A stretch of DNA of 64,000 bases from Candidatus Bathyarchaeota archaeon (GTDB lineage: Archaea > Thermoproteota > Bathyarchaeia > TCS64). Shown one piece after another: positions 27,125-46,195 of the stretch. The notes beneath the pieces were generated by a model, which saw only the letters and a list, made by a program, of their open reading frames with translations, was not told the DNA's origin and did no database searches. The stretch spans positions 96,001 through 160,000 of the forward strand of contig CAVYVF010000002.1 in the NCBI GenBank assembly GCA_963771885.1, read 5' to 3'. Each line of letters begins with the position of its first letter. Within the stretch, counting starts at the first letter, position 1. The position numbers were made by a program, and so were the translations under genes.

Positions 27125-27994
27125 ATGGCGAAGATACTGCTTCTAGGTCTCTCGGGAGACACTGGGTGCCAGGTAGCGACTGTTGGGCTACATGAAGCCC
27201 TACTCGGCATTCTCAAGGCGAACGAGCTAGTCTACGCGCCGACGCTGATGGACGCGAAGACGATCCCAGACAAGATCGACGTCGCTATAATCGAGGGCGG
27301 GTTACGTACCGAGCACGAGGTCGAGATCGCGAAGACGATCCGGGAGCGTTCCGGCGTCCTGATAACGCTCGGCTCCTGCGCCTGCTTCGGCGGAGTCCCC
27401 GGACTCGCCAACCTCAAACAGGGCGAGGAACTTCTCAAGAAGATCTACTCTCAGAAAGGGACAGTCGCCGCTGAGATGCCTACTCTTGATCGCCTTCTCG
27501 AAAAGCAGCAGGCGATCGGGGACTACGTCAAGGTTGACTTCAAGATACCAGGATGCCCACCGGAGACCGGAGAAATCGCCACCATACTGACGTCACTGTT
27601 GAGCGGAAAGATCCCTGAGCTTAGTAAGACTGATGTCTGTGAGCTATGCCCACGGGAGCGGATTGGCGAGTACAGTAAAAAGCTGAAGAGGATTTACGAG
27701 GAGGTCGACGACCCTGGCAGGTGCCTGCTTGAGCAAGGTTTCCTCTGTATGGGTCCTGCGACCATGGGCGGATGCGGCGCGCCATGCCCACAGGCAGGGA
27801 TGCCCTGCGACGGCTGCCGCGGGCCTACGGCGGGCAACAGCGATCAGGGACTCACCATGCTCGACGCCCTAACGAGCTTAACTCGCGAGGCGAATGAGAA
27901 TTTCAGTCTCCCCCAGTACGCGGGAACGCTCTACAGGTACACGTATCCAAGTAGTAAACTCGCGAAGGTTCTGAACGGAGGCGGCAAGAAGTGA
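27125..27994 (+). CDS. mvhG: Group 3c-type [NiFe]-hydrogenase small subunit
   Basis: IEGG, GSCACFGG, PGCPP, CELC, CLLEQGFLCMGPAT..GC...CP....PC.GC motifs. Confidence 0.85.
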   Translation: MAKILLLGLSGDTGCQVATVGLHEALLGILKANELVYAPTLMDAKTIPDKIDVAIIEGGLRTEHEVEIAKTIRERSGVLITLGSCACFGGVPGLANLKQGEELLKKIYSQKGTVAAEMPTLDRLLEKQQAIGDYVKVDFKIPGCPPETGEIATILTSLLSGKIPELSKTDVCELCPRERIGEYSKKLKRIYEEVDDPGRCLLEQGFLCMGPATMGGCGAPCPQAGMPCDGCRGPTAGNSDQGLTMLDALTSLTREANENFSLPQYAGTLYRYTYPSSKLAKVLNGGGKK

Positions 27995-29391
27995 CGGAAA
28001 CCATAACGATCAACCCCCTGACCCGGCTCGAGGGAACCGGTAAGGTCAAGATAGAGGTCGAGAACGGCGCGATTAAAGACCTCCAGCTCAACGTCGCCGT
28101 CGGGCCTAGGTTCTTCGAGTACCTGCTCACGAACAAGCAAGCGGAGGACGCTCCGAGGATAAGTGAGCGGATCTGCGGTATCTGCTACGTTAACCATCAC
28201 CTGGTCTCGGTGAAAGCTGTAGAGGACGCGTGGGGTGTACAAGTGCCAGAGGTCGCCACACTACTAAGGCGCACGCTGAACGCGGCGAGTTTCGTGACGA
28301 GCCACGCGCTCCACCTCGCCTTCTTGGCGCTCCCTGACCTCTTGCCCATACAGAGCCGCAACGTAATAGGCGTCGCCGACGCCAACCCGGAGCTCGCAAA
28401 CGCGGCGCTCCAACTCCACGAGTACGGAAACAGGGTCGTAACCGAGATAGGCGGGAGACTCGTCCACGTCGTCACGAGCGTTCCTGGAGGGCAGACGAAG
28501 GGTCTCACCGGCGAGGCACGGTACAAGCTCCTCAGGGAGGGTCGCATTGCGCTCACGAACGTGAGGAAGATCGCGGACGCCTTCTTCTCCCTCTACGAGA
28601 AGCGCGCGAACGACCCGACGGAGTACATGCACCTCAAAGCACCCTACATGGCGATGGTCAACAAGAGCGGCGGATATGAGCTCTATGACGGCGACATAAG
28701 AGTCAAGAATGGAGATGGGACCCAGCTCTTCCAGTTCCCAGCGCAGGAGTATTACAAACGTCTCGAGGAGACTACGAGTGCACACAGCTTCACCAAGATA
28801 CAGTACCTCAAGGACTTGGGTCCTAAGGACGGCTTGATGCGCGTCGGGCCCCTCGCTAGGATGAACGTCATCGACAGTATGCAGTGGGACACAACCGCCG
28901 AGTACATGAGGCGATACGAGAAATTATTCAAGCGTCCCACGGACGACACGGCAGCATACAACCTAGCCCGAACCGTCGAACTCGTAGCGTCGGTCGATGA
29001 GGTCCTCGATGGGCTGGGCAACGACGTCATCATGACGGAGCGGACACGCGAGCCAGTCAAGGCTCGAGCAGGCACAGGCTACGCCTTCGTCGAGGCACCC
29101 CGCGGGCTTCTCTTCCATAGCTACGAGATAGACGATAAGGGCATCATCAAGGAAGCGAACATCGTCGCGCCGACTACCTTCAACCACAAGAGCATCGAGA
29201 ACAATCTGAGATGCTGGGCCGATGCCCACGCCTCGGCGTTCACAAGGAAGGAGACGAGGCAGGATGCGATGTGGGGCATCGAAAAAATCGTCCGCGCCTA
29301 CGACCCCTGCCTGAGCTGCAGCGTCCACATGGTCGAGGTTGACGTGACAGTGGATGGAGAGGAGTACACGAACAGGAGGCAGGCACAATGA
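27991..29391 (+). CDS. mvhA: Group 3c-type [NiFe]-hydrogenase large subunit
   Basis: RICGIC (L1), EAPRG, and RAYDPCLSCSVH (L2) followed by a cleavable extension. Confidence 0.9.
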   Translation: MTETITINPLTRLEGTGKVKIEVENGAIKDLQLNVAVGPRFFEYLLTNKQAEDAPRISERICGICYVNHHLVSVKAVEDAWGVQVPEVATLLRRTLNAASFVTSHALHLAFLALPDLLPIQSRNVIGVADANPELANAALQLHEYGNRVVTEIGGRLVHVVTSVPGGQTKGLTGEARYKLLREGRIALTNVRKIADAFFSLYEKRANDPTEYMHLKAPYMAMVNKSGGYELYDGDIRVKNGDGTQLFQFPAQEYYKRLEETTSAHSFTKIQYLKDLGPKDGLMRVGPLARMNVIDSMQWDTTAEYMRRYEKLFKRPTDDTAAYNLARTVELVASVDEVLDGLGNDVIMTERTREPVKARAGTGYAFVEAPRGLLFHSYEIDDKGIIKEANIVAPTTFNHKSIENNLRCWADAHASAFTRKETRQDAMWGIEKIVRAYDPCLSCSVHMVEVDVTVDGEEYTNRRQAQ

Positions 29392-31712
29392 GTGCACTCG
29401 TATTCTTCGAGACATTCGGCGAGACCCTGAAGGAGAAGCTCGACGTCGACGCCCTGGAGAGGTACGCGAAGAAGATCGAGGGCGTCTACGACACCTACCA
29501 GATGCCTCTGCTCAACCAGAAGCTGATGCTCGAGAAGCTCATCGAGGTGAAGCAGAACGGCGGAAAGGATGTTTCAAGCGTCGTCGCAGTCACCGGATCA
29601 AGAGTAAGGCTCGAAAAACCCCTGCAGAGGGCGATGGAAGGCGCCGGTCTTGACCCGAACCAACTCGTCATCACGAACGTCCGCGAGCAGTGCGCCCTCG
29701 TCCATGATAGGGTGGAAGCAACTGAGAAGGCAAAGAGCCTCCTCCGCGTAGCCGTCAAGAAGGCGAGGCTCAGCACGCCCCTCGAGAGGAAGGTCGTGCA
29801 GCGCTTCAACGAGGTCCTGGTCATCGGTGGAGGCGTCGCGGGTATCCAGGCGTCACTCGACCTAGCAAAGCTCGGTGTCATGGTGCACCTAGTCGAGCGC
29901 GAGCCGACCATCGGGGGAATGATGCCACTGCTCGGTAAGACGTTTCCAGAGGATAGCTGCGCCATCTGCATCGGCGGTCCCAAGATGATGGACGTCGGCA
30001 ACGAGCCGAGCATAGAGGTGCTCGACAACAGCGAGGTCGAGGCAGTCATCAGGATGCCTGTGGGCTACCGCGTACACGTGAAGCGGAAGCCACGATACGT
30101 CGACGCGGAGAAGTGCGTAGCCTGTGGGCAGTGCACGGAGAGGTGTCCGGTTAGTGTTCCCGACCAGATAAACGGGGGCATCAACATGCGTAAGGCGGTG
30201 TACCTCCCCAACCCAAACGCCGTGCCGAGGAAGCATATCATCGACCCCGAAGCCTGCCTATACCTTACAAAGGGCAGCTGCCGCCTCTGCGAGCGCGTCT
30301 GCCCCAATCAGGCCATAAACTTCAAGGACGAGGAAAAGTACCGGGATTTTTATGTCGGCTCGATAATCGTCGCTACCGGCGTTGACAACTGGGATGCACG
30401 AAAGCACCCCAAGTATGGGGCGCAGTACCCGAATGTTATTGACCAGTTCCAGCTGGCACGTTACCTGGACGGTGAAGGGCCGACGGCAGGCATACTAACC
30501 AAGCCGAGCGATGGACAAAAGCCGAAGAAGATCGTAATGATCCAATGCGCAGGAAGCCGCGACCCTGAGATCAACCCTTGGTGCAGCCGATACTGCTGCA
30601 TGGCAGCGATGAAGCACGCCGAGGAGATCAAACTCCACCACGGTTCCGATATCGACATCACGATACTCTATAAGGACATACGCGCCGGCGGCAAGTACTA
30701 CGAGGAGTTCTATAACCGCGTAAAAACAGTGGGCATCAACTTCGTCCACGGCAACCTCGACGTCGTTAAAGAGGTCGAGGGCGGGGAGCTCATCGTCGAG
30801 TACACCGATGGGAAAGGACAGAGGACATCGACGCCTAGCGACCTAGTCGTCCTCAGCACCGGCATGGTGCCAAGCAAAGGGACGCTCGACCTCGCAGAGA
30901 GGCTCGGTATCGAGATCGGTGCCGACGGCTTCTTCAAGGAGGTGGACACGAAGGTCGCGAGCACAGTAACGAAGAGGCCGGGCATCTACCTCGCCGGGGC
31001 ATGTCACTCCCCGAAGGACATACCCGAGTCCGTCTCCCAGGCAAGCGCCGCGGCAGCGATGGCCGGACTTCACCTAATGAAGGAGGTCGATGCAAACAGG
31101 CCGATCCTGACACCGAAGGTCGACGAGGCGAGGTGCGGGCGCTGTGGTGTCTGCCCAACAGTCTGCCCATACCAGGCGATCACCATGCCCGCGGAAGGCC
31201 CCGTTCGCATAGACGAGACGCTATGTCAGAGCTGCGGTCTATGCATATCCAGCTGTCCGACGCGCGCCTTAGACAACCCGAACTTCGGCTTCGACCTCGT
31301 CGACGCCCAAGTAAAGGCGGCACTCGAAGGGCGAAAAGGGACAACTGTTGTAGGCTTCGCCTGCGCCGACTGCGGCTACAGACTGCTCGACATCGCGGGT
31401 GTCACAGGGGCCAAGTATAGTTCCTCATTTATCCCCATTTACGTCCCCTGCATGAGCACGATCAGCCTACGCCACATAGTTGGGGCCCTCGACCACGGGG
31501 CAGACGGTGTGATGCTCATCGGGTGTGTGAAGGATCGCTGTCACTTTGAGAAGGGCGTGGATCACGCCGAGGGGCAGCTTAGGTTCATGGAGAACCTCTA
31601 CGGAGAGGCGGGTATGCCAATCAGAGTGCTGAAGAGCTGCGGCTCGATGCTTGAACAGTTCCTCACCGAATTGGATGGGTTGGTCAAGCAGATTGAGGAG
31701 GCTAAGAAATGA
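29388..31712 (+). CDS. hdrA: HdrA-like flavo-Fe-S protein fused to an MvhD-like domain (copy 1, degenerate N-terminus)
   Basis: GGGVAG, QCAGSRD..CSRYCC, PKDI, four ferredoxin motifs, C-terminal FAC..C/PC/GC...C domain. Confidence 0.85.
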   Translation: MSALVFFETFGETLKEKLDVDALERYAKKIEGVYDTYQMPLLNQKLMLEKLIEVKQNGGKDVSSVVAVTGSRVRLEKPLQRAMEGAGLDPNQLVITNVREQCALVHDRVEATEKAKSLLRVAVKKARLSTPLERKVVQRFNEVLVIGGGVAGIQASLDLAKLGVMVHLVEREPTIGGMMPLLGKTFPEDSCAICIGGPKMMDVGNEPSIEVLDNSEVEAVIRMPVGYRVHVKRKPRYVDAEKCVACGQCTERCPVSVPDQINGGINMRKAVYLPNPNAVPRKHIIDPEACLYLTKGSCRLCERVCPNQAINFKDEEKYRDFYVGSIIVATGVDNWDARKHPKYGAQYPNVIDQFQLARYLDGEGPTAGILTKPSDGQKPKKIVMIQCAGSRDPEINPWCSRYCCMAAMKHAEEIKLHHGSDIDITILYKDIRAGGKYYEEFYNRVKTVGINFVHGNLDVVKEVEGGELIVEYTDGKGQRTSTPSDLVVLSTGMVPSKGTLDLAERLGIEIGADGFFKEVDTKVASTVTKRPGIYLAGACHSPKDIPESVSQASAAAAMAGLHLMKEVDANRPILTPKVDEARCGRCGVCPTVCPYQAITMPAEGPVRIDETLCQSCGLCISSCPTRALDNPNFGFDLVDAQVKAALEGRKGTTVVGFACADCGYRLLDIAGVTGAKYSSSFIPIYVPCMSTISLRHIVGALDHGADGVMLIGCVKDRCHFEKGVDHAEGQLRFMENLYGEAGMPIRVLKSCGSMLEQFLTELDGLVKQIEEAKK

Positions 31713-34123
31713 GCAACAACAAGGAAGAGCCACGCGTAGGAGTCTTCGTCTGCAGATGCGGCCTTAACGTGGCAAAGTCGGTTGATACGACGAGCCTAAA
31801 GGAGTTCGCCTCTAAGCTGCCAGGCGTTGTCTACACGGAGGAGAGCGACTTCGCCTGCAGTGACGCCGGTGTCAAGTCGATAAGTGAGGCGATTAAAGCG
31901 AACGGTGTGAACCGCGTCGTCGTCGCAGGTTGCTCCCCGTGGCTTCACGAGCCCACATTCCAGCGCATGATGGAGCGCGTCAGGCTCAATAAGTACCTTC
32001 TAGAGATCGCGAACATAAGAGAGCATTGTGCCCTCCTCTACCCCGGCCAGATACTCAAGGCGACCGAGAAGGCTAAGTTCATAGTCAAAGCCGCCGTCGA
32101 GAGGGCTAAGACACTCGAACCAGTCGAGAAGAAGAAGTTCCCCGTTAAGAAGTCCGTCCTCATTCTAGGTGGCGGAGTCGCCGGTGTCGAAGCCGCCAAG
32201 AGGATTGGGGACCTCGGAATGGAGGTGTTCCTCGTCGAGAAGACTCCCTTCCTGGGTGGGAAGGTGCTACAGCTCGGCTCTGTTTTCCCGAGTGACGACT
32301 GTGGTACGTGCGTCTCGCCGTGCGGAGATGACCTGCATCGCAGATGCTTCTATAGGAACACGATCTCCCACCACGAGCACGTCAACATCCTCACGTCAGC
32401 CGAACTCAGGAAGCTTACGGGGCACATCGGCAACTACAAGGCGACCATCGGCGTCAACCCGCGCCTCGTCAACGAGGAGCTCTGCATGGGCTGCGGGAAA
32501 TGCGCAGAGGTCTGCCCCGTCGAGGCGCCGAATGAGTTCAACTTCGGCTGGGACAAGAGGAAAGCAGTCTACATCCTGAGCGACCAGGCTCTGCCGAGGG
32601 TTTACGCGATAGACCCCGGCACATGCACGAGATGCGGCAAGTGCGCGGAGGCGTGCCCGGTAAAGGCGATTGACCTGAGCGAGCAGCCACGTGAGTTGAC
32701 TGTCGACATCGGCGCCGTTGTCGTGGCGACTGGCTTCCAGACCTTCGACCCCAAGGGCATGTACAGCTTCGGGGAGAACCCCAACATCGTCACCCAGATG
32801 CAGTTGGCGAGGATGCTCGATCAGTCCGGCCCGACTAAGGGGAAGGTAATACGCCCTGGCGATGGGCAGGAGCCCAAGCGCATCGCGATGATACAGTGCG
32901 TCGGCTCACGCGACCCCAAGGGGCATGAGTACTGCAGTAAGATATGCTGCAGCATCGCGGTGAAGCATGCGGTCGAGGTCATGGAGAAGAATCCTGAATC
33001 CGGCCTCGCAATTATCCATAAGGACATACGGTTGACCGGGAAGCACTACGAAGACTACTATTACAGGGCACAGAACTTAGGCGTCCGCCTTCTACGAGGC
33101 GAGGTCGAGGGTGTCACATCAATGCCCGATGGGTCGATACACATCGACGTGAAAGACGAGTACGGCGAGATTGTACCTCTCTACGTAGATCTTCTAGTAC
33201 TCTCGACCGGCCTTGAGCCATCCCTAGGAACCCCCGAACTGGCACAGAAGCTGGGCGTACCTCTATCCGTAGACGGCTTCTTTGCTGAGCGCGGACCGAA
33301 GATCGAGCCGCTTGATACCGCCGTCGAGGGCATCTTCATAGCGGGTACCGCACACGGACCAAAGGATATTCAGGAGAGCGTGACACAGGCACTCGGCGCG
33401 ACCGGGCGCGTAGCCTCGATGCTGATGCGTGGCGAGATGGAGATAGACCTCGCGAAGGCATGGGTGGACAAGGAGAAGTGCGTCGGCTGCGGCGCCTGCG
33501 CGAGTATTTGCCCATTCGCTGCCATCGAGTGGAGCGCCTTCGGCGAGCCTAAGGTCATTGAGGCGGCGTGCGAGGGCTGCGGTATCTGCAGCGCAGTCTG
33601 CCCAGTCTCTGCGATGCAGCTGCGCCACTACAAGGACGACCAAATCATCCCAAAGATCAAGGCGATACTGACGCCGAAATGGCTCAGCGAGGAGAAGAAG
33701 GACGAGCCCGTCATCGTCGCCTTCGCCTGCCAGTGGTGCAGCTACGCCGCCGCGGACACTGCGGGCAACATGGGGATGGAATACCCGGACAACATACGCA
33801 TAATCAGGGTTCCCTGTAGCGGGCGCATAGACGCCACGCACATCATCTCAGCCTTCAAGAACGGCGCAGATGGGGTGATTATCAGCGGCTGCCTCCCTAC
33901 TCAGTGTAACTACCTCACAGGAAACCTCGAAGCCATCGACCGCGTCGACGCAATGAAGAAGACACTAGACGTATTAGGCATCGGCGGCGAGCGCATCGAG
34001 ACAATCTTCACAAGCGCATGCATGCCGACGTGGCTAGTAATGATGTTTAAGGACTTCACGGAACGAGTGCAGATGCTAAACGAGGCCGCAAAACCGAAGC
34101 CTGAAACCGTCTCCCACGACTAG
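31709..34123 (+). CDS. hdrA: HdrA-like flavo-Fe-S protein fused to MvhD (copy 2)
   Basis: GVFVCRCG, AGCSP, QCVGSRD..CSKICC, GPKDI; MvhD motifs FACQWCSY, VPCSGR, SGC...C. Confidence 0.9.
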   Translation: MSNNKEEPRVGVFVCRCGLNVAKSVDTTSLKEFASKLPGVVYTEESDFACSDAGVKSISEAIKANGVNRVVVAGCSPWLHEPTFQRMMERVRLNKYLLEIANIREHCALLYPGQILKATEKAKFIVKAAVERAKTLEPVEKKKFPVKKSVLILGGGVAGVEAAKRIGDLGMEVFLVEKTPFLGGKVLQLGSVFPSDDCGTCVSPCGDDLHRRCFYRNTISHHEHVNILTSAELRKLTGHIGNYKATIGVNPRLVNEELCMGCGKCAEVCPVEAPNEFNFGWDKRKAVYILSDQALPRVYAIDPGTCTRCGKCAEACPVKAIDLSEQPRELTVDIGAVVVATGFQTFDPKGMYSFGENPNIVTQMQLARMLDQSGPTKGKVIRPGDGQEPKRIAMIQCVGSRDPKGHEYCSKICCSIAVKHAVEVMEKNPESGLAIIHKDIRLTGKHYEDYYYRAQNLGVRLLRGEVEGVTSMPDGSIHIDVKDEYGEIVPLYVDLLVLSTGLEPSLGTPELAQKLGVPLSVDGFFAERGPKIEPLDTAVEGIFIAGTAHGPKDIQESVTQALGATGRVASMLMRGEMEIDLAKAWVDKEKCVGCGACASICPFAAIEWSAFGEPKVIEAACEGCGICSAVCPVSAMQLRHYKDDQIIPKIKAILTPKWLSEEKKDEPVIVAFACQWCSYAAADTAGNMGMEYPDNIRIIRVPCSGRIDATHIISAFKNGADGVIISGCLPTQCNYLTGNLEAIDRVDAMKKTLDVLGIGGERIETIFTSACMPTWLVMMFKDFTERVQMLNEAAKPKPETVSHD

Positions 34124-35516: not shown

Positions 35517-36920
35517 TTAGGCGTGGTTTTGTTTCTTCGCTATGATCAACTCATGTATCGCCTTCGCCGCCTTCTTCCCCGCGCCCATAGCGCTGATTAC
35601 TGTTGCGGCGCCGCTGACAACGTCGCCTCCCGCGTACACGCCTGGTATCGCTGTCTGCATGGTTTCCTCGTTGACGACGATTGTTCCGTGACGCGTCGTT
35701 TGTAGCCCTTCGGTGGTCTGCTGGATGATGGGGTTCGGAGACTGCCCTATCGCTATCACTGCGGTGTCGATCTCTAGCATGAAGTTGCTTCCCTCGATTG
35801 GTTCGGGTCTACGCCTTCCAGACTGGTCAGGCTCGCTTAGGCGCTGCTTTACGCACTCAACTTTTTCTAGGAACCCGCGCTCGTTTCCGATGAACCGGAT
35901 TGGGTTGGTAAGGAGCATGAACTCTATGCCCTCCTCTTCGGCGTTCTCGACCTCCTCGGCTCTGGCAGGCATCTCGTCTTTGCTTCTGCGGTAGATTATG
36001 TAGACCTTTTCGGCGCCGAGGCGCAGTGCGCATCGGGCGGAGTCCATCGCGACGTTGCCAGCGCCGACGACTCCCACCTTCTTACCCACCCTGATCGGTG
36101 TGTCGTACTCAGGGAACCTGTAGGCCTTCATTAGGTTCGTGCGGATGAGGAACTCGTTTGCCGAGTATATCCCCTTCAGGTTCTCCCCGGGTACTCGGAG
36201 GAAGTTTGGTAACCCTGCCCCGGAGCCTACGAATACTGCGTCGTAACCGCCGTCCTTTAGTTCCTGGATGGTTGTGAGGAGGCCGACCGTGGAGTCTAAG
36301 CGCAACTCCACGCCGAGGCTCTTCACATACTCCACCTCGTTTTGCACTATCTCCTTTGGGAGCCTGAACTGTGGGATGCCGTACATGAGTACTCCGCCGG
36401 CTGTGTGCAGCGACTCGAACATCGTGACGCTGTGGCCGAGCTTGGCGAGGTCAGCCGCGACGGTCAAGCCTGCGGGGCCAGAACCAACGACCGCCACCTT
36501 TCCCCCGTTAACAGCAATATTTGATCTCTCCAGCTTAGTGTTTAGCCTCTCCCAGTCCGATGCGTATCTCTCGATGCGCCCTATTCCGACGGGGTCTCCT
36601 CTGACTCCAAGCACACAGAACTTTTGGCACTGCTCCTCCTGCGGGCAGACCCTGCCACATACTGCGGGAAGGGCGTTCTTCTCCTTGATCTTCCTCGCTG
36701 CGTCGCCGAACTTTCGTTCCTTTACTAGTTGAATGAACTCGGGGATTGGCACCTCGACGGGGCACCCCTTCTTGCACTGTGGCTTGGGGCAGTTGAGGCA
36801 CCTCGCCGCTTCATCGAGGGCGAGCTGCTCATCGAACCCGAGCGCGACCTCGTCGAAGTTATGGATCCTCTTCTCGACGCCCTGCTTCGGCATCTCGCTC
36901 TGTGGCTTCTTGTGCGCCAT
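35517..36920 (-). CDS. nfnB: NfnB/SudA (NADPH-dependent glutamate synthase beta-like) large subunit
   Basis: RCLNC....C...CP, GRVCPQEEQC, IER, GSGPAG, GIPQFRLP, GAGNVAMD and YRR motifs. Confidence 0.9.
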   Translation of the reverse strand: MAHKKPQSEMPKQGVEKRIHNFDEVALGFDEQLALDEAARCLNCPKPQCKKGCPVEVPIPEFIQLVKERKFGDAARKIKEKNALPAVCGRVCPQEEQCQKFCVLGVRGDPVGIGRIERYASDWERLNTKLERSNIAVNGGKVAVVGSGPAGLTVAADLAKLGHSVTMFESLHTAGGVLMYGIPQFRLPKEIVQNEVEYVKSLGVELRLDSTVGLLTTIQELKDGGYDAVFVGSGAGLPNFLRVPGENLKGIYSANEFLIRTNLMKAYRFPEYDTPIRVGKKVGVVGAGNVAMDSARCALRLGAEKVYIIYRRSKDEMPARAEEVENAEEEGIEFMLLTNPIRFIGNERGFLEKVECVKQRLSEPDQSGRRRPEPIEGSNFMLEIDTAVIAIGQSPNPIIQQTTEGLQTTRHGTIVVNEETMQTAIPGVYAGGDVVSGAATVISAMGAGKKAAKAIHELIIAKKQNHA

Positions 36921-36921
36921 C

Positions 36922-37741
36922 TCAGTCTCCTCCGTCAAACAACACCATCGCGATCTTCTCGCTTGGGTTGTAGAATCTCATTCTGTTGATCAGCTCCTCG
37001 TAGTTGACCTTGTGTCCGTCGAAGTCGGGTCCGTGCACGCAGGCGAACTTGGTCTCGTTTCCCACGCTGACCCTGCAAGCGCCGCACATGCCCGTTCCAT
37101 CGACCATAATGGGGAAGAGGTTCACCGTCGTGGGGATGCCATACGGTTTGGTCATCTCGGAGACGACCATCTGCATGCTAGTCGGTCCAATTGTCATCGC
37201 CTGAGCGAACTTTTTCTCGGCGAGTATCTTGCCGAGGAAGTTTAGGCCCTCCTCGCCCTCGGATCCGTCGTCCGTTGCGACGTGGAGCTCATCGCTGTAC
37301 TTTCTCAGTTCGTCGACAAGTATTAGGTGTTCCTTGCTTCTCGCACCAATGACAGTTGTTATTCTATTCCCAGCGTTTCTTCAACGCCTTCATTTGGTAT
37401 AGTAAAGCCCCCGCCATCACGCCTCCGCCGACGCACAGCACGTCGCCGTATTGTCGGATCTTCGTGGCGTTTCCTAGTGGGCCCGAGAAGTTCAGGATTG
37501 AGTCGCCTTCGTTCAGATTCCCTAGTTGAGTCGAGGATTTACCCACCTCGGCGAAGATGATGGTTACTAAGCCCTTTTCTGGGTTCGCGTCCGCGATTGT
37601 TATCGGGAACCTCTCCCCTTTCTCGTGGACGCGCACTATGACGAACTGCCCGGGCTTGGACTTTGCCGCAACAGCTGGTGCATGGACGTCGAATAGCTTG
37701 ATGTTCGATGCCAGTTTATCCTTCCGCACTATACCGTACAT
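36922..37741 (-). CDS. nfnA: NfnA/SudB small subunit, split by a +1 frameshift near 37377
   Basis: KPGQF..VR...GERFPITI, GPLG, VGGG, then MVDGTGMCGACRV...CVHGP. Removing one A joins the halves (KNAGNRITTVIGAR). Confidence 0.88.
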
Positions 37742-37882
37742 GAAGGGATCACAGTACATAGGGTCAATACTATAAAAACTTGTACATGTTGTATTTATTA
37801 TCCGTTAGTGTTCATTGAATGGAAAAACATGTGCAGGTAAAATGATTGTTTAGTTAAATGAAAAAAGATGAAATACGGGGGT

Positions 37883-39233
37883 TTAAGCGTAGACGCCTTG
37901 GGCGATCATCGCGTCGGCTACCTTGAGGAAGCCTGCGATGTTTGCGCCCATGACGTAGTCGCCGGGTTTGCCGAAGAGCTTTGCAGTGTCGTATGCGTTC
38001 TTGTGGATGTTGATCATGATGCCGTGTAGCTTCTGATCAACTTCCTCGAAGCTCCAGAAGTAGCGCTGGCTGTTCTGGACCATCTCGAGGCCACTTGTGG
38101 CTACGCCGCCTGCGTTGCTGGCCTTGCCGGGTGCGTATAGCACGCCACCTTCCTGGAGGACCTTGATTGCCTCTAAGCGTGCATGGCATGTTTGCGCCCT
38201 CGGTGACTGCCTTGCAGCCGTTATCGATGAGCTTCTTGGCGTCCTTATCGTTCAGCTCGTTCTGAGTCGCGCAGGGGTACGCGAGGTCACATTTGACGCC
38301 CCATGGGGTCTTCTTAGCCTCGTATGTAGCGCCCTTGAACTTCTCGGCATACTCGCTGATGCGGCCCCTCTTGACGTTCTTGAGCTCGAGTACGAAGGCG
38401 AGCTTTTTCTCGTCGATGCCGGCTGGGTCGTAGATGTAGCCGTCGGAGTCGCTTAGAGTGACTGGCTTAGCGCCGAGCTGGATGAGTTTCTGTACCGCGT
38501 ACTGTGCGACGTTTCCGGAGCCGGAGACGACCGCGACCTTACCCTTTAGGGATTCCTTCTTGGTCTTCATCATCTCCTCGCTGAAGTAGACTGCACCATA
38601 GCCGGTCGCCTCAGTCCTCGCAAGGCTGCCACCGAAGGTTAGGCCCTTGCCGGTGAGTACGCATGTGCCGTGGTTGTTCGTGATCTTGCGGTATGCGCCG
38701 TACATGTAGCCGATCTCTCGTCCGCCAACACCAATGTCGCCGGCGGGAACGTCGACGAACTGGCCGACGTGCCTGTAGATCTCTGCCATGAAGCTTGTAC
38801 AGAAAGACTCTACTTCTGCGTCAGTCTTGCCCTTGGGGTCAAAGTCAGAACCGCCCTTCGCACCACCCATTGGTAGGGTGGTGAGGCTGTTCTTGAAGGT
38901 CTGCTCGAATCCGAGGAACTTCATAACGCCTAGGTTGACTGTGGGGTGGAACCTGAAGCCGCCCTTGTATGGGCCGATCGCTGAGTTGTACTGCACACGG
39001 TAGCCGCGGTTGACCTGGATCTTCCCATCCTTGTCCTTCCAAGGAACACGGAACTGGATGATCCTCTCTGGCTCAACCATGCGCTCAAGAATGGCGTTCT
39101 CCTGGTACTTAGGGAACTTCTTGATCGCGGGCTCGATGGTCGCCAGAACCTCATAGGCTGCCTGGTGGAACTCCTTCTGCAGGGGATCCTTCTCAACGAG
39201 GCTCTTGTAGATGCTCTCAATATACTTATCCAA
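37883..39233 (-). CDS. gdhA: NADP-specific-type glutamate dehydrogenase, split by a +1 frameshift near 38175
   Basis: GPYKGG.RFH, GGAKGG, DVPAGD, SGSGNVA and EGANMP motifs, then APGKASNAGGVATS in the next frame. Confidence 0.92.
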
Positions 39234-39656
39234 TTTTCGCGCCTCTCATAAACTCACGGTATCCCGTATATATTGCTATCCATCTTTCTCCATTATTAAT
39301 TTGATATTTATTTCCACTAAAATAAATACTGAATGTTATGATATTTTAAGAAAATTGTGTTCAATTTTATCGGATATGTAGATATTATTCGTTTATGTTA
39401 TTTGATGAAAGTTGACGTTTGTCATTACACTATTCTTATAATTTAGTCAAATTCAATTTTCCTTTTCGAAGCTTGTTTTATTTGTTCGACGATAGCTTTA
39501 AATCCATTCCTTAGAAAGCCTAGGAGATGGTATGTACAGGTAAGGTAGGTGTATTTACATACCCTTACTCCCCATCTGCGCGAATGGGATATAAACTTAG
39601 CTTTACCTGTTGGAAGATATCATCTTCAGACTCAATCAGGTTCGTGAGTGGATAGC
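39234..39656. promoter_or_regulatory. AT-rich divergent promoter region between gdh-nfn and the ech operon
   Basis: Very AT-rich; TTTAAAT box at about 39497-39503 on the + strand; TATATA-like box near 39267-39272 for gdh. Confidence 0.6.
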
Positions 39657-41597
39657 ATGGATAGCGAGTTACTTGTTGCGTTACTGGTCGGTCTCCCCGC
39701 GGTAGCGGGGCTGTTGTGTTATTTCCTCAAGAACAAGACCGCCATCAAGGCGATTGTTGGGATCAGCGCAGTTGCCTTGATCGGTTCGACGATTCTGCTT
39801 TATCAGAACGACGGCTTCGTGCTCAAGACGAGCACGTTAATCGATGACCTAGTCCTCATCGCGGACTTTGCCTTACTATTGTACTTCCTCTACATTGGGT
39901 GGCAGAAGGCAAACCTGCCAATCATCGGTTTGACTCTGACCTACATTGTTCCCCTTGCATACTTCGAGTACTGGCACTACAACGAGGAGATCACTCCTAC
40001 GATGTTTGCGGACCAGCTCTCAATCACTATGTCCCTCATTGTCGGCGTGATAGGCTCCATCGTGTGTATCTATGCGCTCAGATACATGGATGACCACTCA
40101 AAGCACATGGAGTCGCTGACTGGGCGCGACAGGTTCGTCCAGAAGGCGAACCAGCCCAAGTTCTTCCTCTTCATGCTTCTCCTCCTCGGCGCGATGAATG
40201 GGCTTGTCTATAGCAACGACTTGACGTGGCTCGCGTTCTTCTGGGAGATCACTACGCTCTGTTGCTATGAGCTCATCAGGTATGATGGGACAGAGGTAGC
40301 TGAGGCAAACGCCCAGCGCGCCCTCTGGATGGGCATAGTCGGAGGAGCCGCCTTCATGGGTGCACTCTGGCTGAGCTACCAATATCTTGGGATCCCGTCC
40401 CTAACGGCGCTCCTAGCCTCCCCCACCACGACCCCTGTCCTGCTGATATTCGCGCTGCTAGCCGTGGCGGCGTTTAGCAAGTCGGCTCAGCTACCATTCC
40501 AAAACTGGCTCCTCGGGGCCATGGTTGCACCTACACCCGTGTCGGCTCTCCTTCACTCAAGCACGATGGTCAATGCTGGTGTATACCTGATCCTCAGGAT
40601 CGCCCCCAAGCTAGTCGGGACGAATCTGAGCTACGGAATTGCTGCCGTCGGAATATTCACGTTCATGTTCACTTCCATCATGGCGCTGAACCAGCGTGTC
40701 TCCAAGTCTATACTCGCCTACTCCACGATCGGTAACCTAGGCCTAATGATCTTCTGCGCCAGCATGGCGACCCCACTTTCCTACTCCGCCGCTATTATTC
40801 TGCTCATCTTCCACTCGATGTCCAAGGGCCTGCTCTTCATGACGGCCGGGATAATTGAGAACAAGCTCCATAGCAGGAACATCGCCGACTGGCAGGGTTT
40901 GCTCGCGAGGCTGCCGTTCACGACGACCGTCATGATTATCGGCATTGTGAGCATGTTCCTCCCTATCTTCGGCGTGTTGCTTGGCAAGTGGGCGGCCGTA
41001 GGCGTCGTCTCCAACGCGCCTCTGCTCCCCGCACTTGCGATGATAATAATGCTTCTCATAGGAAGCTCGGCGAGCATGCTGTTCTGGGCGAAGTGGCTCG
41101 GTAACTTCATCATGGCACCCGCCGGTAAAGCCAAAGCCTCAGAGGAGGATTTACCCCTCATCTACAAGTTCACGCTACTCATCGTCCTCGCGTTGGACAT
41201 CGCAGCGAGCATAGGTTCAGGCTTCGTCATCGGGAACTTTGTCGTTCCAACGATGATCCGTCAGTTCACATGGGTCACCCCACCCGATCCATCGATATTC
41301 GTCGCGCAGCTGGGCGGTTTCCTAATCTGGCAGCTCTGGATCGCGATCGGCGCTGTCATCGCCTTTGGACTGATAATCAGCAGGACGAAGAAGGGACAGC
41401 TACAGCCTGCTTACCTATCAGGCGAAAACGTCGAAGACAACCCCATCGCCTTCAGAACGACGGGTGACACGGTTGTCGACACGACAGTGGCTGGCATGTT
41501 CTTCGACCCTACAATCTCTACCTCCCGCTGGGAGCGATGGGCCATCATTCTAAGCATCGGCCTAATCGCACTTACGTTCGCTCTGGTGGTGTTGTAA
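39657..41597 (+). CDS. echA: EchA/NuoL-like antiporter subunit
   Basis: FFWE, KSAQLPF, AMVAPTPVSALLHSSTMV, HSMSKGLLF motifs. Confidence 0.9.
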   Translation: MDSELLVALLVGLPAVAGLLCYFLKNKTAIKAIVGISAVALIGSTILLYQNDGFVLKTSTLIDDLVLIADFALLLYFLYIGWQKANLPIIGLTLTYIVPLAYFEYWHYNEEITPTMFADQLSITMSLIVGVIGSIVCIYALRYMDDHSKHMESLTGRDRFVQKANQPKFFLFMLLLLGAMNGLVYSNDLTWLAFFWEITTLCCYELIRYDGTEVAEANAQRALWMGIVGGAAFMGALWLSYQYLGIPSLTALLASPTTTPVLLIFALLAVAAFSKSAQLPFQNWLLGAMVAPTPVSALLHSSTMVNAGVYLILRIAPKLVGTNLSYGIAAVGIFTFMFTSIMALNQRVSKSILAYSTIGNLGLMIFCASMATPLSYSAAIILLIFHSMSKGLLFMTAGIIENKLHSRNIADWQGLLARLPFTTTVMIIGIVSMFLPIFGVLLGKWAAVGVVSNAPLLPALAMIIMLLIGSSASMLFWAKWLGNFIMAPAGKAKASEEDLPLIYKFTLLIVLALDIAASIGSGFVIGNFVVPTMIRQFTWVTPPDPSIFVAQLGGFLIWQLWIAIGAVIAFGLIISRTKKGQLQPAYLSGENVEDNPIAFRTTGDTVVDTTVAGMFFDPTISTSRWERWAIILSIGLIALTFALVVL

Positions 41598-41598
41598 A

Positions 41599-42465
41599 AT
41601 GGCACAAGAACTCGACATGGCTTTACGCATCATATACGTACTATCCGCACCCATCATTGCGGGGCTACTAACAGGAATCGATAGGATTCTCACTGCAAGG
41701 ATGCAGAGCAGGATGGGTCCACCACTCCTTCAGCCATTTTATGATTTAATCAAGCTCTGGGGCAAGGAGCCGTTCATCTCAAACATGATCCAGCCAACGC
41801 TTGCATTCGGCTACCTCGCATTCACCGTGACGGGTATCTCCCTCATCGCATTGCAGGAGGATCTACTGTTCATACTCTACACCGTATTGATCGCAGACGT
41901 GTGCCTTGCTGTGGCCGCATACAGCACAACCTCCCCCTACAGTAACCTGGGTGGAAAACGTGAGCTTCTGGCGATGCTCTCAATCGAGCCCATCATGGTG
42001 CTCACCGCGATAGGCGTTCACCTGATCACAGGGAGCTTCCAGATATCCAGCATATTCGCATACCCCACCCCTCTCCTGCTCATCCTTCCCGGCGCCCTCG
42101 CAGTGCATGTCATCGTTCTAGTCATCGACATGAAGAAGTCCCCCTTCGACATATCCGGCTCAAGCCACGCCCACCAGTCGCTCGTCCGTGGCGTCTATAC
42201 CGAGTTCAGTGGTTACACGCAGGCGCTTGTCGAGATGGGTCACTGGCTAAAGGTCTACTTCACAATGAGCCTCATCGCCCTCTTCTGGGCTCAGAACTTC
42301 ATTATAGGCGCAGCGATCGCCTTCGCTCTCTTCTTTATAGCGATAGTGATCGATAACATCTATCCTCGCTTAGACTGGAAGGACATGCTCAAAACGTCCT
42401 GGACCTTCGGGTTCCTCCTGATACTTGTGAACCTGATCGTCATCGTCGTCTTCAAGGTGATTTAA
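41599..42465 (+). CDS. echB: EchB/NuoH-like membrane subunit
   Basis: ARMQSRMGPPLLQPFYDLIKL and PFD....HAHQ motifs. Confidence 0.9.
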   Translation: MAQELDMALRIIYVLSAPIIAGLLTGIDRILTARMQSRMGPPLLQPFYDLIKLWGKEPFISNMIQPTLAFGYLAFTVTGISLIALQEDLLFILYTVLIADVCLAVAAYSTTSPYSNLGGKRELLAMLSIEPIMVLTAIGVHLITGSFQISSIFAYPTPLLLILPGALAVHVIVLVIDMKKSPFDISGSSHAHQSLVRGVYTEFSGYTQALVEMGHWLKVYFTMSLIALFWAQNFIIGAAIAFALFFIAIVIDNIYPRLDWKDMLKTSWTFGFLLILVNLIVIVVFKVI

Positions 42466-42466
42466 A

Positions 42467-42925
42467 ATGAAGTTGATGACTAAAGCCCGGCTCAAGTCTC
42501 CATGGGTCCTCCACTACGACACCGGTAGCTGTAACGGCTGCGATATCGAGATACTCGCCGCCCTCACACCAAAGTTCGATGCTGAGAGGTTCGGCATAGT
42601 CAACATTGGTGACCCTAAGCAGGCGGACATACTACTCATCACCGGGCCGGCGAACCATCGTAACAAGACCGTCCTCAAGAACCTTTACGATCAGATGCCT
42701 GAGCCAAAGCTAGTCATGGCGATCGGCGAATGCGCGTGTTCGGGCGCGATATTCCACAACTGCCCCAACACTCTCGGAGGCGTCGACAAAGTCGTACCCG
42801 TTGACGTCTACGTCCCCGGCTGCGCAGTACGACCTGAGCAGATAGTCGATGGCGTAATCCTAGCGCTAGGGAAACTCGCTGAGAAGAGCGAGCAAATGGA
42901 GCAGAAGGAGAAGAAGGGTGAGTAA
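42467..42925 (+). CDS. echC: Group 4 hydrogenase small subunit
   Basis: GSCNGCDIE, GECA and PGC..RP motifs. Confidence 0.92.
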   Translation: MKLMTKARLKSPWVLHYDTGSCNGCDIEILAALTPKFDAERFGIVNIGDPKQADILLITGPANHRNKTVLKNLYDQMPEPKLVMAIGECACSGAIFHNCPNTLGGVDKVVPVDVYVPGCAVRPEQIVDGVILALGKLAEKSEQMEQKEKKGE

Positions 42926-44723
42926 GATGACTGCACCAGCACAAACAAGCCTTAGCAACACGATCGATGATACAGTCGATAAGAACAATCTATTCTTCAA
43001 CCTAAATGAGCTGAAGGGATCGGGAGCCCGCTTCCTAACCATCACGGCACTCGACCTCGAAAAGGACTTTGAGCTAGTATACCATTTCGAAAAAGGCTCA
43101 AATATCATCAACCTTCGCCTAAAGTCTCCGAAGAAGGAGACCTTGCAGAGCATCACGACAGTCTATCCGATGGCTTTCCTCGCCGAGAACGAGTTACAGG
43201 ATCACTTCGGCATCAAGGTATCCGGACTCAACGTCGATTTCGGCGGCAAGCTACTACGTGTTGAGACCGCTGAGCAGGATACTTTACTCAAGCCGGCGGT
43301 TGGTCCGGTTCCATTCATAAAGAGGTTCTGGGGGAAGTGCCGCGAGGAATGCCCAGCGAACGTGAACGCGCCAAAGTACATCCGCCAGATAGTCGAGGGA
43401 AATCCAAAGGGAAGTTATAGCACTATTATCGAGCAGGCACCGTTGCCAGCAATACTCGGCAGGGTTTGCTTCGCCCCCTGCCAAGAGGGATGTAGACAGG
43501 AGAAGAACGACCACCCCATACAGATACGCCTCCTCAAGAGGTACGCCGCTGATTCGATCGGCAGGCTCAAGAGGGATGTATCCAGAGCTAAGCCGACCGG
43601 TAAGAAGATCGCCGTCATCGGCGGCGGCCCATCCGGAGTCTCCTGCGCATTCTACTTGGGGATGCTGGGCCACGACGTGACCGTCTTCGAGAAGAATGAC
43701 AGGTGCGGCGGCGCCATGCTTTGGGGCATACCCAAGTACAGACTCCCCAAGACCGTTATGGAGGAGGAGATCATTGCCCGCTTCGAGGAGGCTGGCGTGG
43801 TGTTCGAGAAGGGTAAGGAGATCAATAGCCTCAAGCCCATCTTGGACAAATTCGACGCCGTCTACATCTCTATAGGCGCCACCGACAGCTACAAGCTAGG
43901 CGTCGAAGGCGAGGACGCTAAGGGCGTCATCGACTTCCGTGACCTCCTCACTGAGGTCAACATGAGAAACAAGCACCTTAACGTTGGCCAGCGTGTAGCC
44001 ATCGTCGGTGGAGGGAATAGCAGCATCGATGCCGCACGCGTCGCCAAGAGACTCGGCGCTGCAAACGTTACACTGTACTATAGGCGCACTGAGAAGGAGA
44101 TGCCCGCGTCACCGCTAGAAATCCACGGCGCACTACAGGAGGGCATCAACTTCGAATACCTCACCGCGCCGGTCAAGATCATACCTGGCGAGCCCCTCAA
44201 GATGGTCCTACAGCACATGGAGCTCGGCGAACCCGACGAGTCCGGGCGTCGCCGTCCCGTCCCAGTAATCGGCAGCGACTTCACAATTGTTGTTGACACA
44301 ATCATCAAGGGCATCGGCCAGTCAGTCGTTATCCCGAAGGACTTCAACGTTGAGGTATCGCGCAGAGGCACGATAGTTGTCAACGACAACTACGAGACGA
44401 GCGTCAAGAACGTATACGCGGGCGGAGACTGCGTCTTTGGTCCCAAGTCCGTCATCGAGGCACTGCGCGATGGGCGTCTAGCAGCGTCCGTAATAGACAA
44501 GAGCTTCGGCGGCAACGGCTGGCTCGTTCCCGGCGTCGACATCAACGAGTACGTCGGCAGGGCACCGAACATCGACGAGATTAGGTTCCAGGAAGTAACA
44601 CAGGTGAGAGAGCTAGAGCCCGAGGAACGGGTTAAAAACCTCGATGAGGTTGAGCTAGGATACAACTCCGCAGAGGCGCTTCGCGAAGCGCAGAGATGCT
44701 GGAGGTGCGACTGGAATGAGTAG
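42918..44723 (+). CDS. EchD/NuoC domain fused to a GltD/NfnB-like FAD/NADPH oxidoreductase
   Basis: First about 120 aa: LVYHF...SIT.VYP.AFLAENELQDHFG. Then CREECP, GRVC...C...C, GGGPSG, GIPKYRLP, GGGN, YYRR, GGD and C-terminal RCWRC. Confidence 0.88.
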   Translation: MSKMTAPAQTSLSNTIDDTVDKNNLFFNLNELKGSGARFLTITALDLEKDFELVYHFEKGSNIINLRLKSPKKETLQSITTVYPMAFLAENELQDHFGIKVSGLNVDFGGKLLRVETAEQDTLLKPAVGPVPFIKRFWGKCREECPANVNAPKYIRQIVEGNPKGSYSTIIEQAPLPAILGRVCFAPCQEGCRQEKNDHPIQIRLLKRYAADSIGRLKRDVSRAKPTGKKIAVIGGGPSGVSCAFYLGMLGHDVTVFEKNDRCGGAMLWGIPKYRLPKTVMEEEIIARFEEAGVVFEKGKEINSLKPILDKFDAVYISIGATDSYKLGVEGEDAKGVIDFRDLLTEVNMRNKHLNVGQRVAIVGGGNSSIDAARVAKRLGAANVTLYYRRTEKEMPASPLEIHGALQEGINFEYLTAPVKIIPGEPLKMVLQHMELGEPDESGRRRPVPVIGSDFTIVVDTIIKGIGQSVVIPKDFNVEVSRRGTIVVNDNYETSVKNVYAGGDCVFGPKSVIEALRDGRLAASVIDKSFGGNGWLVPGVDINEYVGRAPNIDEIRFQEVTQVRELEPEERVKNLDEVELGYNSAEALREAQRCWRCDWNE

Positions 44724-45855
44724 CCAACACAACCACGGTGCCTCGCTGGCACGAAAGGAATACACAGTCTTCCCATTCGGGCCGCAGCACCCCGTGCTGC
44801 CCGAGCCCATACAGCTGAGGTTCACACTCGATGAGGAAAAGATAGTCGACGTTGTACCTCAGCTCGGTTACGTTCACAGGGGCATCGAGCGCGCCGCTGA
44901 GTTGAACGACTACAAGCGCAACGTCTTCCTTTGTGAACGCGTCTGTGGCATCTGCAACTACATCCACGGAATGACCTACAGCATGGCGATAGAAAAGCTG
45001 ACGGACACCGAGGTGCCCGAGAGGGCAAAGTACCTTAGGGTGATCTGGACGGAACTCGGCCGTCTGCAGAGTCACCTACTCTGGCTCGGCCTCTTCGCTG
45101 ACGCGATAGGGTTCGAGAGTCTCTTCATGCAGATCTGGCGCGACAGGGAGGTTATACTTACCCTGAATGAGAAAACTAATGGCCACAGAATACACCTCTC
45201 TACAAACGCCATCGGAGGGGCGAGGAAGGACATCGACGACTCCCTTGCTAAGGAGTATCGGAAGGACCTTGAGATTGTACGCTCAAAGATTAGAGTTCTC
45301 GAGCCAGTCTTTTACAAGGACAAGTCCTTCAGACAGCTCACTGAGGGCAAGGGCATACTCCCAAAGAGTCAAGCCAACCTCATGGGTGCTGTCGGTCCCG
45401 TGATAAGGGGTAGCGGCGTCGCCCAAGATATGAGATCCCTCGACCCGACATTCAAAGCGCTCGACTTTAAACCCGTCGTCTACGAGAGCTGCGACAGCTA
45501 CGCGAGGACTCTAGTCCGTTTCGACGAGGTCTTCGCGAGCATCGACCTGATAATCAGGGCGCTTGACCAGATGCCCGAGGGTCCTATCCTTAACAAGAAT
45601 GAAAAGTTCCCCGAGGGTACAGCCATAGTGAGGACGGAACAGCCTCGTGGAGAACTATTCTACTACCTCGAAGGGAACGGCACGAACAAGCTTAGTCGAG
45701 TCAAGATCAGGACACCGACGGGCGCAAACATTCCCCCTCTAGTGTCGATGCTCATCGGCCACGAGCTGCCTGATATCCCCGTCATCGTGCATAGCATAGA
45801 CCCCTGCATAAGCTGCACTGAGCGCTACGTGCAAGTTAGGAAGGAGGCGGACTAG
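44716..45855 (+). CDS. echE: Group 4 [NiFe]-hydrogenase large subunit
   Basis: GPQHP, GYVHRGIE, ERVCGIC and DPCISCTER, so all four Ni-Fe cysteines are present. Confidence 0.92.
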   Translation: MSSQHNHGASLARKEYTVFPFGPQHPVLPEPIQLRFTLDEEKIVDVVPQLGYVHRGIERAAELNDYKRNVFLCERVCGICNYIHGMTYSMAIEKLTDTEVPERAKYLRVIWTELGRLQSHLLWLGLFADAIGFESLFMQIWRDREVILTLNEKTNGHRIHLSTNAIGGARKDIDDSLAKEYRKDLEIVRSKIRVLEPVFYKDKSFRQLTEGKGILPKSQANLMGAVGPVIRGSGVAQDMRSLDPTFKALDFKPVVYESCDSYARTLVRFDEVFASIDLIIRALDQMPEGPILNKNEKFPEGTAIVRTEQPRGELFYYLEGNGTNKLSRVKIRTPTGANIPPLVSMLIGHELPDIPVIVHSIDPCISCTERYVQVRKEAD

Positions 45856-45856
45856 G

Positions 45857-46195
45857 ATGCCGGAGATGTGGAAGGAAGTCCTCAAGAACCTAGTAAGTAA
45901 GCCTGCGACCGTCAACTACCCGTTTGAGAAGCCTACGCCGATGCCGGGGACGCGTGGCGCCCTCACCTGGGATATGAGCAGGTGCGACCAGTGCCAGGAC
46001 TGTGAGCGTGTCTGCCCCAGTATGGCAATCAAGGTTTTCCCCGAGGAGAAGAAGATAGAGTACCACCCATTCAAGTGCCTCTTCTGCTACATCTGCATCG
46101 ACAACTGCATGCAGCAGGCCATCATCGGGACCGAAGTCGTGCGTGCGCCTGAGACCTCGAAGGTCGTCGAGACCTACGAAGTCTCAAAAGCGTAA
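45857..46195 (+). CDS. echF: EchF/NuoI-like 2x[4Fe-4S] subunit
   Basis: KPATVNYPF...RG, CDQCQDCERVCP and CLFCYICIDNC. Confidence 0.88.
   Translation: MPEMWKEVLKNLVSKPATVNYPFEKPTPMPGTRGALTWDMSRCDQCQDCERVCPSMAIKVFPEEKKIEYHPFKCLFCYICIDNCMQQAIIGTEVVRAPETSKVVETYEVSKA

Follow-up and report, generated by a model that had tools for sequence, protein, structure and literature searches.

Which electron carrier serves an Ech hydrogenase whose EchD subunit is continuous with a flavoprotein? The question is raised by an operon of a Candidatus Bathyarchaeota archaeon (assembly GCA_963771885.1), located at 39648-46195 of a 64,000-nucleotide stretch of contig CAVYVF010000002.1, hereafter the window, in which echD runs into a sequence encoding a GltD-like module. 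Group 4e, the Ech group, is defined with ferredoxin as the partner in the available text of HydDB (PMC5037454). The EchD-GltD fusion is real, the result neither of chance nor of an assembly error, and the fused subunit is part of what by sequence is a true Ech-clade hydrogenase. The proposed activity is that of an ion-translocating NADPH:H+ oxidoreductase, reversible but probably working towards H2, a reading assigned a probability of about 0.55.

The fused EchD subunit and its distribution

The six genes follow the intact order echA-B-C-D-E-F on one strand (Table 1), consecutive open reading frames (ORFs) being separated by 1 nucleotide or overlapping by 8, and each was identified by Pfam, in agreement with the order given in the original prediction made from the nucleotide sequence alone. 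That prediction also had EchD continuing in frame into a GltD-like flavoprotein with two Rossmann motifs, YYRR and Fe-S cysteines, and this was borne out by a single ORF containing the domains Complex1_30kDa (residues 22-103, E 5e-10), Fer4_20 (140-213) and Pyr_redox_2 (230-519), two Rossmann glycine motifs, YYRR and a C-terminal CWRC. Representatives of unfused EchD are mostly 110-160 residues in length; the EchD of Butyrivibrio fibrisolvens, the echABCDEF operon of which (NZ_CP146964.1) served as the Ech control, has 190.

At least 133 proteins (330-1052 residues, most ~600) matched residues 1-200 of the fusion. All three Pfam domains were present in 115 of the 120 matches listed, at 49-98% identity over that region. 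The named organisms among the matches listed were Bathyarchaeota, except for one labelled Patescibacteria. In a class-wide sample of Bathyarchaeia the fusion was present in 47 of 401 genomes, comprising the genome under study, 39 of 70 from its family and 7 of 14 from a second family (f9), and was not found in the other genomes searched. In a sample drawn from the phylum, 17 of 401 genomes matched at 1e-12, six with matches spanning both parts, of which three belong to another class, and the other eleven with a match to one part only. The six were the only genomes with this EchE (the genome under study and five at 62-66% identity, the next best being 49%), indicating that in the phylum sample this Ech does not occur unfused. 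Representatives of 50% clusters contributed four more full-length fusions, one 460-residue form and one 287-residue piece, with Verstraetearchaeota and Planctomycetota as the named members. The 460-residue form used as the query matched 161 proteins; the 120 listed were mostly of 592-611 or 459-462 residues, and the named organisms among them were Dehalococcoidia and Dehalogenimonas.

The reading frame was inspected in 112 loci found with the fusion as the query, duplicates included, which show conservation and not frequency. Both parts were in one frame in 109; two loci were cut by a contig end and one (L102) was broken within EchD. A scan of genome contigs with the single protein yielded only three loci. 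A stop or frameshift between the EchD and GltD parts, which the original prediction had named as fatal to it, was not encountered: none of 50 genome matches from the class-wide sample contained an internal stop, and in a DNA comparison with a 93%-identical relative every insertion or deletion was outside the operon. A contig from an independent run covered the junction (43144-43409) with 0 gaps and 17 substitutions, gaps and not stops being compared. An assembly artefact or non-functional accident, for which single-base insertions in neighbouring genes of the assembly might be cited, is refuted by several hundred independent full-length fusions with conserved ligands together with the one-frame loci and has next to no probability.

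Table 1. Location of the ech genes, the parts of the fused subunit and the divergent neighbours in the window.
Feature	Coordinates	Strand	Description
echA	39648..41597	+	649 aa; single antiporter-like (NuoL/MrpA-type) membrane subunit; Pfam Proton_antipo_N/M
echB	41599..42465	+	288 aa; NuoH-like membrane subunit; Pfam NADHdh
echC	42467..42925	+	152 aa; hydrogenase small subunit (NuoB-like), one [4Fe-4S] site; Pfam Oxidored_q6
echD-fusion	42918..44723	+	601 aa; Pfam Complex1_30kDa + Fer4_20 + Pyr_redox_2
EchD/NuoC-like domain of fusion	42918..43274	+	~aa 1-119; Pfam Complex1_30kDa; 29% identity to unfused Butyrivibrio EchD
Conserved linker of fusion	43275..43337	+	~aa 120-140; G129, P132 and R136 invariant
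StnC/NfnA-type GltD-like module	43338..44723	+	two [4Fe-4S] sites, FAD Rossmann fold, NADPH-type Rossmann fold with YRR
echE	44716..45855	+	379 aa; [NiFe] large subunit (NuoD-like); 9 residues beyond final Arg
echF	45857..46195	+	112 aa; NuoI-like, two [4Fe-4S] sites
NADP-specific glutamate dehydrogenase (gdh), divergent	37883..39233	-	split by one extra base at 38178; NF006929 above cut-off
nfnA + nfnB, divergent	35517..37759	-	nfnA split by one extra base at 37375

A scan for promoters and terminators was at chance level (8 found, with 4.9 and 5.0 expected), the consensus being bacterial and the host archaeal. Contigs from three RNA runs of two studies matched parts of the ech genes; such contigs show neither transcription nor its level and were not used as evidence. 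The sequencing runs contained at most 0.19 of the words.

Other arrangements of the same domains were also observed. Two fusions of 723 residues (P0524, P0527) contain an additional response-regulator receiver domain (PF00072), and a 493-residue protein (P0340) named ech hydrogenase subunit E is an EchD-EchE fusion. In six loci (L129, L130, L131, L136, L137, L138) the gene for a group 4 large subunit lies downstream of one for a NuoC-like protein of ~220 residues with a different conserved C-terminal extension, and in L129 the NuoC-like gene is itself preceded by a gene for a DmsB-like Fe-S protein.

Hydrogenase core, flavin module and their relatives

EchE contains the motifs RVCGIC and DPCISC, and the four Ni-Fe cysteines of L1 and L2, the motifs that define the [NiFe] large subunit in the available text of PMC7886697, were present in 53 of 53 sequences. 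This result rules out an Ehr complex and, together with the tree described below, upholds the earlier view that the enzyme is a real hydrogenase and not Ehr-like. The four cysteines of EchC were found in 89 of 89 sequences and the eight of EchF in 51 of 51. In EchA, residues E200, K278, H389, K393 and K447 were present in 47 of 47 sequences and H303 in 46; these charged positions are presumably equivalent to residues of NuoL. The charged residues of EchB were likewise conserved (76 sequences), and all cofactor and pump residues were kept among proteins down to ~50% identity.

The phylogeny of EchE, another analysis suggested with the original prediction, placed the protein in a clade with Butyrivibrio EchE and relatives of 358-360 residues (support of 100 in the Shimodaira-Hasegawa-like approximate likelihood ratio test, SH-aLRT), with ten other Thermoproteota group 4 subunits falling apart from it. 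This was a quick tree, as were all trees reported here, of 35 rows with one named reference on a long branch, and the placement is by tree and not by HydDB. EchE was 55-59% identical to the 358-360-residue relatives, several of which are named 'ech hydrogenase subunit E'. An archaeal subclade (99) includes proteins named Odinarchaeia, Korarchaeum and Methanomethylicota, known here from sequences and not from gene context. The Butyrivibrio operon has the same gene order, all subunits are homologous (29-59% identity, EchC being 59% identical), and Ni-Fe and Fe-S ligands are present in both; EchE of the window is longer by nine C-terminal residues. In two loci from another class (L148, L149) EchE stops at the final Arg, and in most other fused operons it extends 6-13 residues further. 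One antiporter-like subunit, one EchC cluster and two EchF clusters were found, as in group 4e. By these features the core belongs to the Ech clade but departs from it in EchD, which is small and cofactor-free in group 4e whereas here it is fused to a flavin module of 460 residues.

Among 98 loci surveyed, echA was present in 61 of 65 with room for it, echB in 67 of 73, and echE and echF in 66 of 66. The six echB exceptions are paralogs with the arrangement C-[D-GltD]-E-F, an 88-residue EchF and no membrane genes upstream, nested among Bathyarchaeia sequences in the tree. Two genomes carry such a paralog in addition to a complete copy, and in a third genome the likely complete copy is cut by a contig end. 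It is a candidate for a soluble NADP-linked hydrogenase derived from group 4, as judged by gene content. The echC-[echD-GltD]-echE-echF paralogs with intact Ni-Fe cysteines were seen in L073-L076, L142:5934-9551 and L147:6012-9632, where two small genes with no Pfam family, a Usp gene and a gene for an AbrB-PhoU-type regulator lie upstream.

The closest PDB matches of the module, by sequence and by fold, were 9bov_A, 9n5u_A and 8oh5_C, and the N-terminal domains of NfnA (9bov, 9n5u) and StnC (8oh5) ranked ahead of NfnB and GltD. One cluster is predicted to be ligated by C145, C184, C188 and K207, the other by C141, C192, C594 and C597. Residue K207, aligned with K170 of NfnA/StnC, was present in 85 of 85 sequences, as were the second Rossmann motif and YRR, and both C594 and C597 in 84. 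In the available parts of PMC10482914 and PMC11829005, K170 is the Lys ligand of the FAD-adjacent cluster, with Glu at that position in NfnB, and the FAD is non-bifurcating and delivers single electrons from NADPH into the Fe-S chain. At the position of K207 the NfnB encoded in the window likewise has Glu. The CWRC at the C-terminal end of the fusion corresponds in the alignment to an N-terminal segment in Thermotoga NfnB, an arrangement that amounts to a circular permutation, and on that basis probably completes the distal cluster. Among 245 fused proteins the second Rossmann motif was found in all 199 full-length forms but in only 1 of the 41 short ones, and the Lys ligand in 197 and 40, respectively. 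The residues at these positions place the module with the non-bifurcating StnC/NfnA type having a Lys-ligated proximal cluster, and its specificity is probably for NADPH. The earlier label of 'GltD/NfnB-like' holds for the GltD-like character and the NADPH-type fold; identity as NfnB was ruled out, since the ligand is Lys and not Glu and the CxxC is C-terminal and not N-terminal. The single-chain AlphaFold2 model of the fusion had a predicted local distance difference test score (pLDDT) of 84 and a predicted template modelling score (pTM) of 0.74, the relative orientation of the two parts not being fixed.

Two other identities were rejected for the module. StnC/NfnA of NfnABC has the same GltD-like NADPH-FAD domain, Lys-ligated cluster and C-terminal CxxC, but there the domain is joined to a NuoG-like one and supplies a bifurcating BfuBC core that is soluble, whereas the fusion partner here is EchD of a membrane hydrogenase; a Stn/NfnABC (Bfu) enzyme was ruled out by the lack of the NuoG-like domain and of BfuBC genes in the operon, the match to the Stn/NfnABC chains (963-1178 residues) being confined to residues ~103-570 of those chains. 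A glutamate synthase small subunit was ruled out since no GltB partner was found in the 92%-complete genome, where PF01645 gave only two weak partial matches to ORFs of 486 and 363 residues, which we take to be IMP dehydrogenase and type 2 IPP isomerase. The available text of HydDB (PMC5037454) gives glutamate synthase linkage only for [FeFe] A2.

A truncated relative occurs in cultured Dehalococcoides mccartyi. Protein AAW39860.1 (P0534, 461 residues) has the EchD domain, Fer4_20, the FAD fold and a CWRCD end and is 39% identical to the fusion over the first 310 aligned residues, but is without the NADPH-binding domain that is intact in the window fusion. One member of the 461-residue D. mccartyi cluster is named EchD by UniRef. 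In the available text of PMC9304861 the Dehalococcoides Ech is called Mbh-Bfu, with nine genes including BfuABC, NADH and ferredoxin predicted, and one subunit with an extra flavin site, which we infer to be P0534. The Dehalococcoides cluster carries bfuABC within it, whereas the six-gene operon of the window has no Bfu. Forms of 460 residues without the NADPH-binding domain (P0245, P0419, P0461 and P0534) are named Dehalococcoides and Dehalogenimonas. In the tree the short forms are a group of their own (99), nested in a clade (99) that also contains full-length proteins of Dehalococcoidia type, and this nesting suggests that the ~460-residue form arose by secondary loss of the NADPH domain. 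The fusion had not been recognised in the original prediction as a known architecture, and a description of the full-length form was not found in the literature, where coverage was thin for subscription papers and figures and supplements could show it. Nothing on the fusion was found in the available parts of PMC9534799, PMC10321748, PMC7886697, PMC11631310, PMC5736913, PMC8165549, PMC13040438 and PMC12542780.

Proposed reaction and its alternatives

In the proposed reaction NADPH would donate a hydride to the FAD of the fused module, from which single electrons would pass to the Lys-ligated [4Fe-4S] cluster, the distal [4Fe-4S] cluster, the two EchF clusters, the EchC cluster and finally the Ni-Fe site, where H2 would be made, with EchA and EchB moving approximately one H+ or Na+ per H2. 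The direction favoured in this genome would be evolution of H2 from amino-acid-derived NADPH with H2 at or below ~10 Pa; in reverse, the gradient would drive NADP+ reduction from H2 through the same wire. This path has the module docking on EchF, for which complex prediction gave weak support: residues 120-601 scored 0.40 with EchF versus 0.00 for the best control, no interface being given. Among reference pairs the mark was attained by 116 of the 157 that were solved and by 2 of the 215 that were mismatched, but only 18 of the solved pairs attained it with a score of 0.60 or less, as did both mismatches. The runs agreed in at least 65% of contacts and the partner pLDDT was at least 67. Also counted in favour of an NADPH-linked enzyme are the closest solved relatives of the module, which are the NADPH-oxidising domains of NfnA and StnC, the presence of an unfused second group 4 hydrogenase in the genome that could serve ferredoxin, and the echAB-less copies, which keep C-[D-GltD]-E-F together.

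The energetics were evaluated with potentials from Table 1 of PMC9304861 and an ion cost at an assumed 150-180 mV. Electron transfer from NADPH (-380 mV) to H2 yields -27.7, -22.0, -16.3, -10.6 and -4.9 kJ/mol at 0.1, 1, 10, 100 and 1000 Pa H2, and the cost of one ion is about 14.5-17 kJ. With NADPH at -320 mV the reaction is 11.6 kJ less favourable and yields only about -10 kJ/mol at 1 Pa H2. Since the yield is near the cost of an ion, pumping with NADPH depends on low H2 together with a reduced NADP pool, and the enzyme could also run backwards, forming NADPH from H2 at the expense of the gradient.

Several points weigh against NADPH as the donor to a pumping hydrogenase. The energy margin is thin, and the linker is poorly modelled (AlphaFold2 pLDDT <50 at 118-133). 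Both clusters are retained in EchF, where ferredoxin could therefore still dock. In the Dehalococcoidia form the FAD fold and clusters are kept although 40 of 41 proteins are without the second Rossmann motif, so the module can have a non-NADPH role. Linkage to gdh or nfn is absent in 29 of 45 loci with room for it, those with at most 59% identity in the module.

The alternative that survives best, possible though clearly the less probable, is a three-way hub in which ferredoxin would use EchF as its docking site and power H2 evolution and pumping in the manner of an ordinary Ech, while the module taps the wire as a ferredoxin:NADP+ or H2:NADP+ reductase for biosynthesis. EchF, EchC and EchE are intact Ech subunits, H2 formation with ferredoxin as the donor releases far more energy (-28 to -51 kJ/mol), and the genome has 9 matches to the family of 2-oxoacid:ferredoxin oxidoreductases (POR). 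However, these tasks could already be covered by Nfn together with the other group 4 enzyme, which is unfused. In addition, D44 and D48 in the first cluster motif of EchF, invariant in 44 rows, are absent in Butyrivibrio EchF and Pyrococcus furiosus MbhN, a hint from two controls only; the assignment of the EchF entry cluster is taken from complex I.

It is improbable that the module serves mainly as a relay or docking adaptor for another partner, or that its substrate is not NADPH, although one or the other probably applies to the Dehalococcoides subunit without the NADPH domain. The 41 homologs of ~460 residues that keep the EchD, Fe-S and FAD parts without that domain are consistent with such a role, but the NADPH fold and YRR-type motif are present in every full-length form (199/199) and no partner gene lies within the operon. 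Still more doubtful is an electron-bifurcating or confurcating membrane hydrogenase, for instance with NfnA docking on the fused module. The nfnA gene is next door in close relatives, and an Arg aligned by motif with R239 of StnC occurs in 82 of 85 sequences; yet the proximal ligand is the Lys of non-bifurcating StnC and not the Glu of NfnB, an NfnB of its own is available to NfnA in this genome, and the nfn linkage is not general.

Gene neighbourhood and significance

The original prediction had the operon divergent from NADP-type glutamate dehydrogenase and Nfn genes. These genes are present (Table 1), gdh and nfnA each containing an extra base as judged against the 93%-identical relative. 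The gdh frameshift is likely an assembly error because gdh is intact in 5 of 5 relatives checked and the contigs from RNA runs are also without one base at 38176-38178; nfnA is intact in relatives too. Other clusters of the same genome (C22, C23) also look frameshifted, suggesting assembly errors. A divergent gdh or nfnA was found in 16 of 45 loci with room, all at least 66% identical in the module. General linkage was rejected as confined to close relatives, and the arrangement is weak evidence of function because it occurs in only those 16 loci. Just beyond nfnB (27125-34123) the window encodes an mvhG-mvhA-type hydrogenase and, after it, a pair of HdrA-MvhD fusions that differ from each other (774 and 804 residues), a cluster that adjoins nfn-gdh-ech in several close relatives too. 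In one subgroup (L148:3440-4375, L081, L085, L090, L099) a gene for a 311-residue thioredoxin-reductase-like flavoprotein lies directly 3' of echF.

Completeness of the genome is 92% and contamination 6.7%. It encodes another group 4 hydrogenase, one without the fusion, in an Fpo-like cluster that resembles Hfo as presented in the available text of PMC7886697, located at G000:C22:313784-324293 with a gene for a HycI-like protease recognised by eye. Also present are two Mvh-type hydrogenases beside hdr genes, HypD and the ATP synthase c subunit; searches of the 92%-complete assembly revealed no CdhC, Rnf or GltB. The gene content would fit a fermenter disposing of electrons as H2. At G000:C7:67399-79674 an Ehr-like cluster with a Cys-less large subunit is followed by NuoE/NuoF/NuoG-like and HdrB-like genes, identified by eye.

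Input modules on group 4 cores are already known for formate, CO and Bfu, which tempers surprise. Formate hydrogenlyase (FHL), Fdh-Ech and Fdh-Mrp-Mbh carry such a module and operate near the thermodynamic limit in either direction, as proposed here; relative to the formate- and CO-linked enzymes the input here would be NADP(H), attached through EchD. In Thermotoga mbx-like operons a GltD-related flavoprotein replaces NuoI (PMC4758237). It has been proposed to provide the NAD(P) site of a membrane complex resembling complex I, as is proposed for the module here, but that complex is Mrp-type with a NuoD homolog having only vestigial Cys, whereas the enzyme of the window retains EchF and has a complete Ni-Fe site.

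A wider proposal, the odds of which are judged a little short of even, is that the enzyme represents an undescribed class of energy-conserving respiratory complexes, for which 'NADPH hydrogenlyase' is suggested: a minimal Ech that pumps ions with NADPH as the donor and protons as the acceptor, widespread in sediment Bathyarchaeia, Verstraetearchaeota, Dehalococcoidia and Planctomycetota. On this view the complex I superfamily would have a second plug-in port in the C-terminus of EchD, and the flavin subunit of Dehalococcoides Ech would be a truncated descendant. If so, a nucleotide-oxidising module would have joined a core of the complex I kind independently, through a protein and attachment point different from those of NuoEFG, and an origin would be at hand for the flavin site in the Ech of Dehalococcoides, which is so far unexplained and can be studied in culture. 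Amino-acid fermenters partnered with H2 consumers would conserve energy from NADPH near the thermodynamic limit. Group 4e is annotated as ferredoxin-coupled and, if NADP(H) is used, the electron carrier is wrongly assigned in metabolic models of an abundant sediment lineage.

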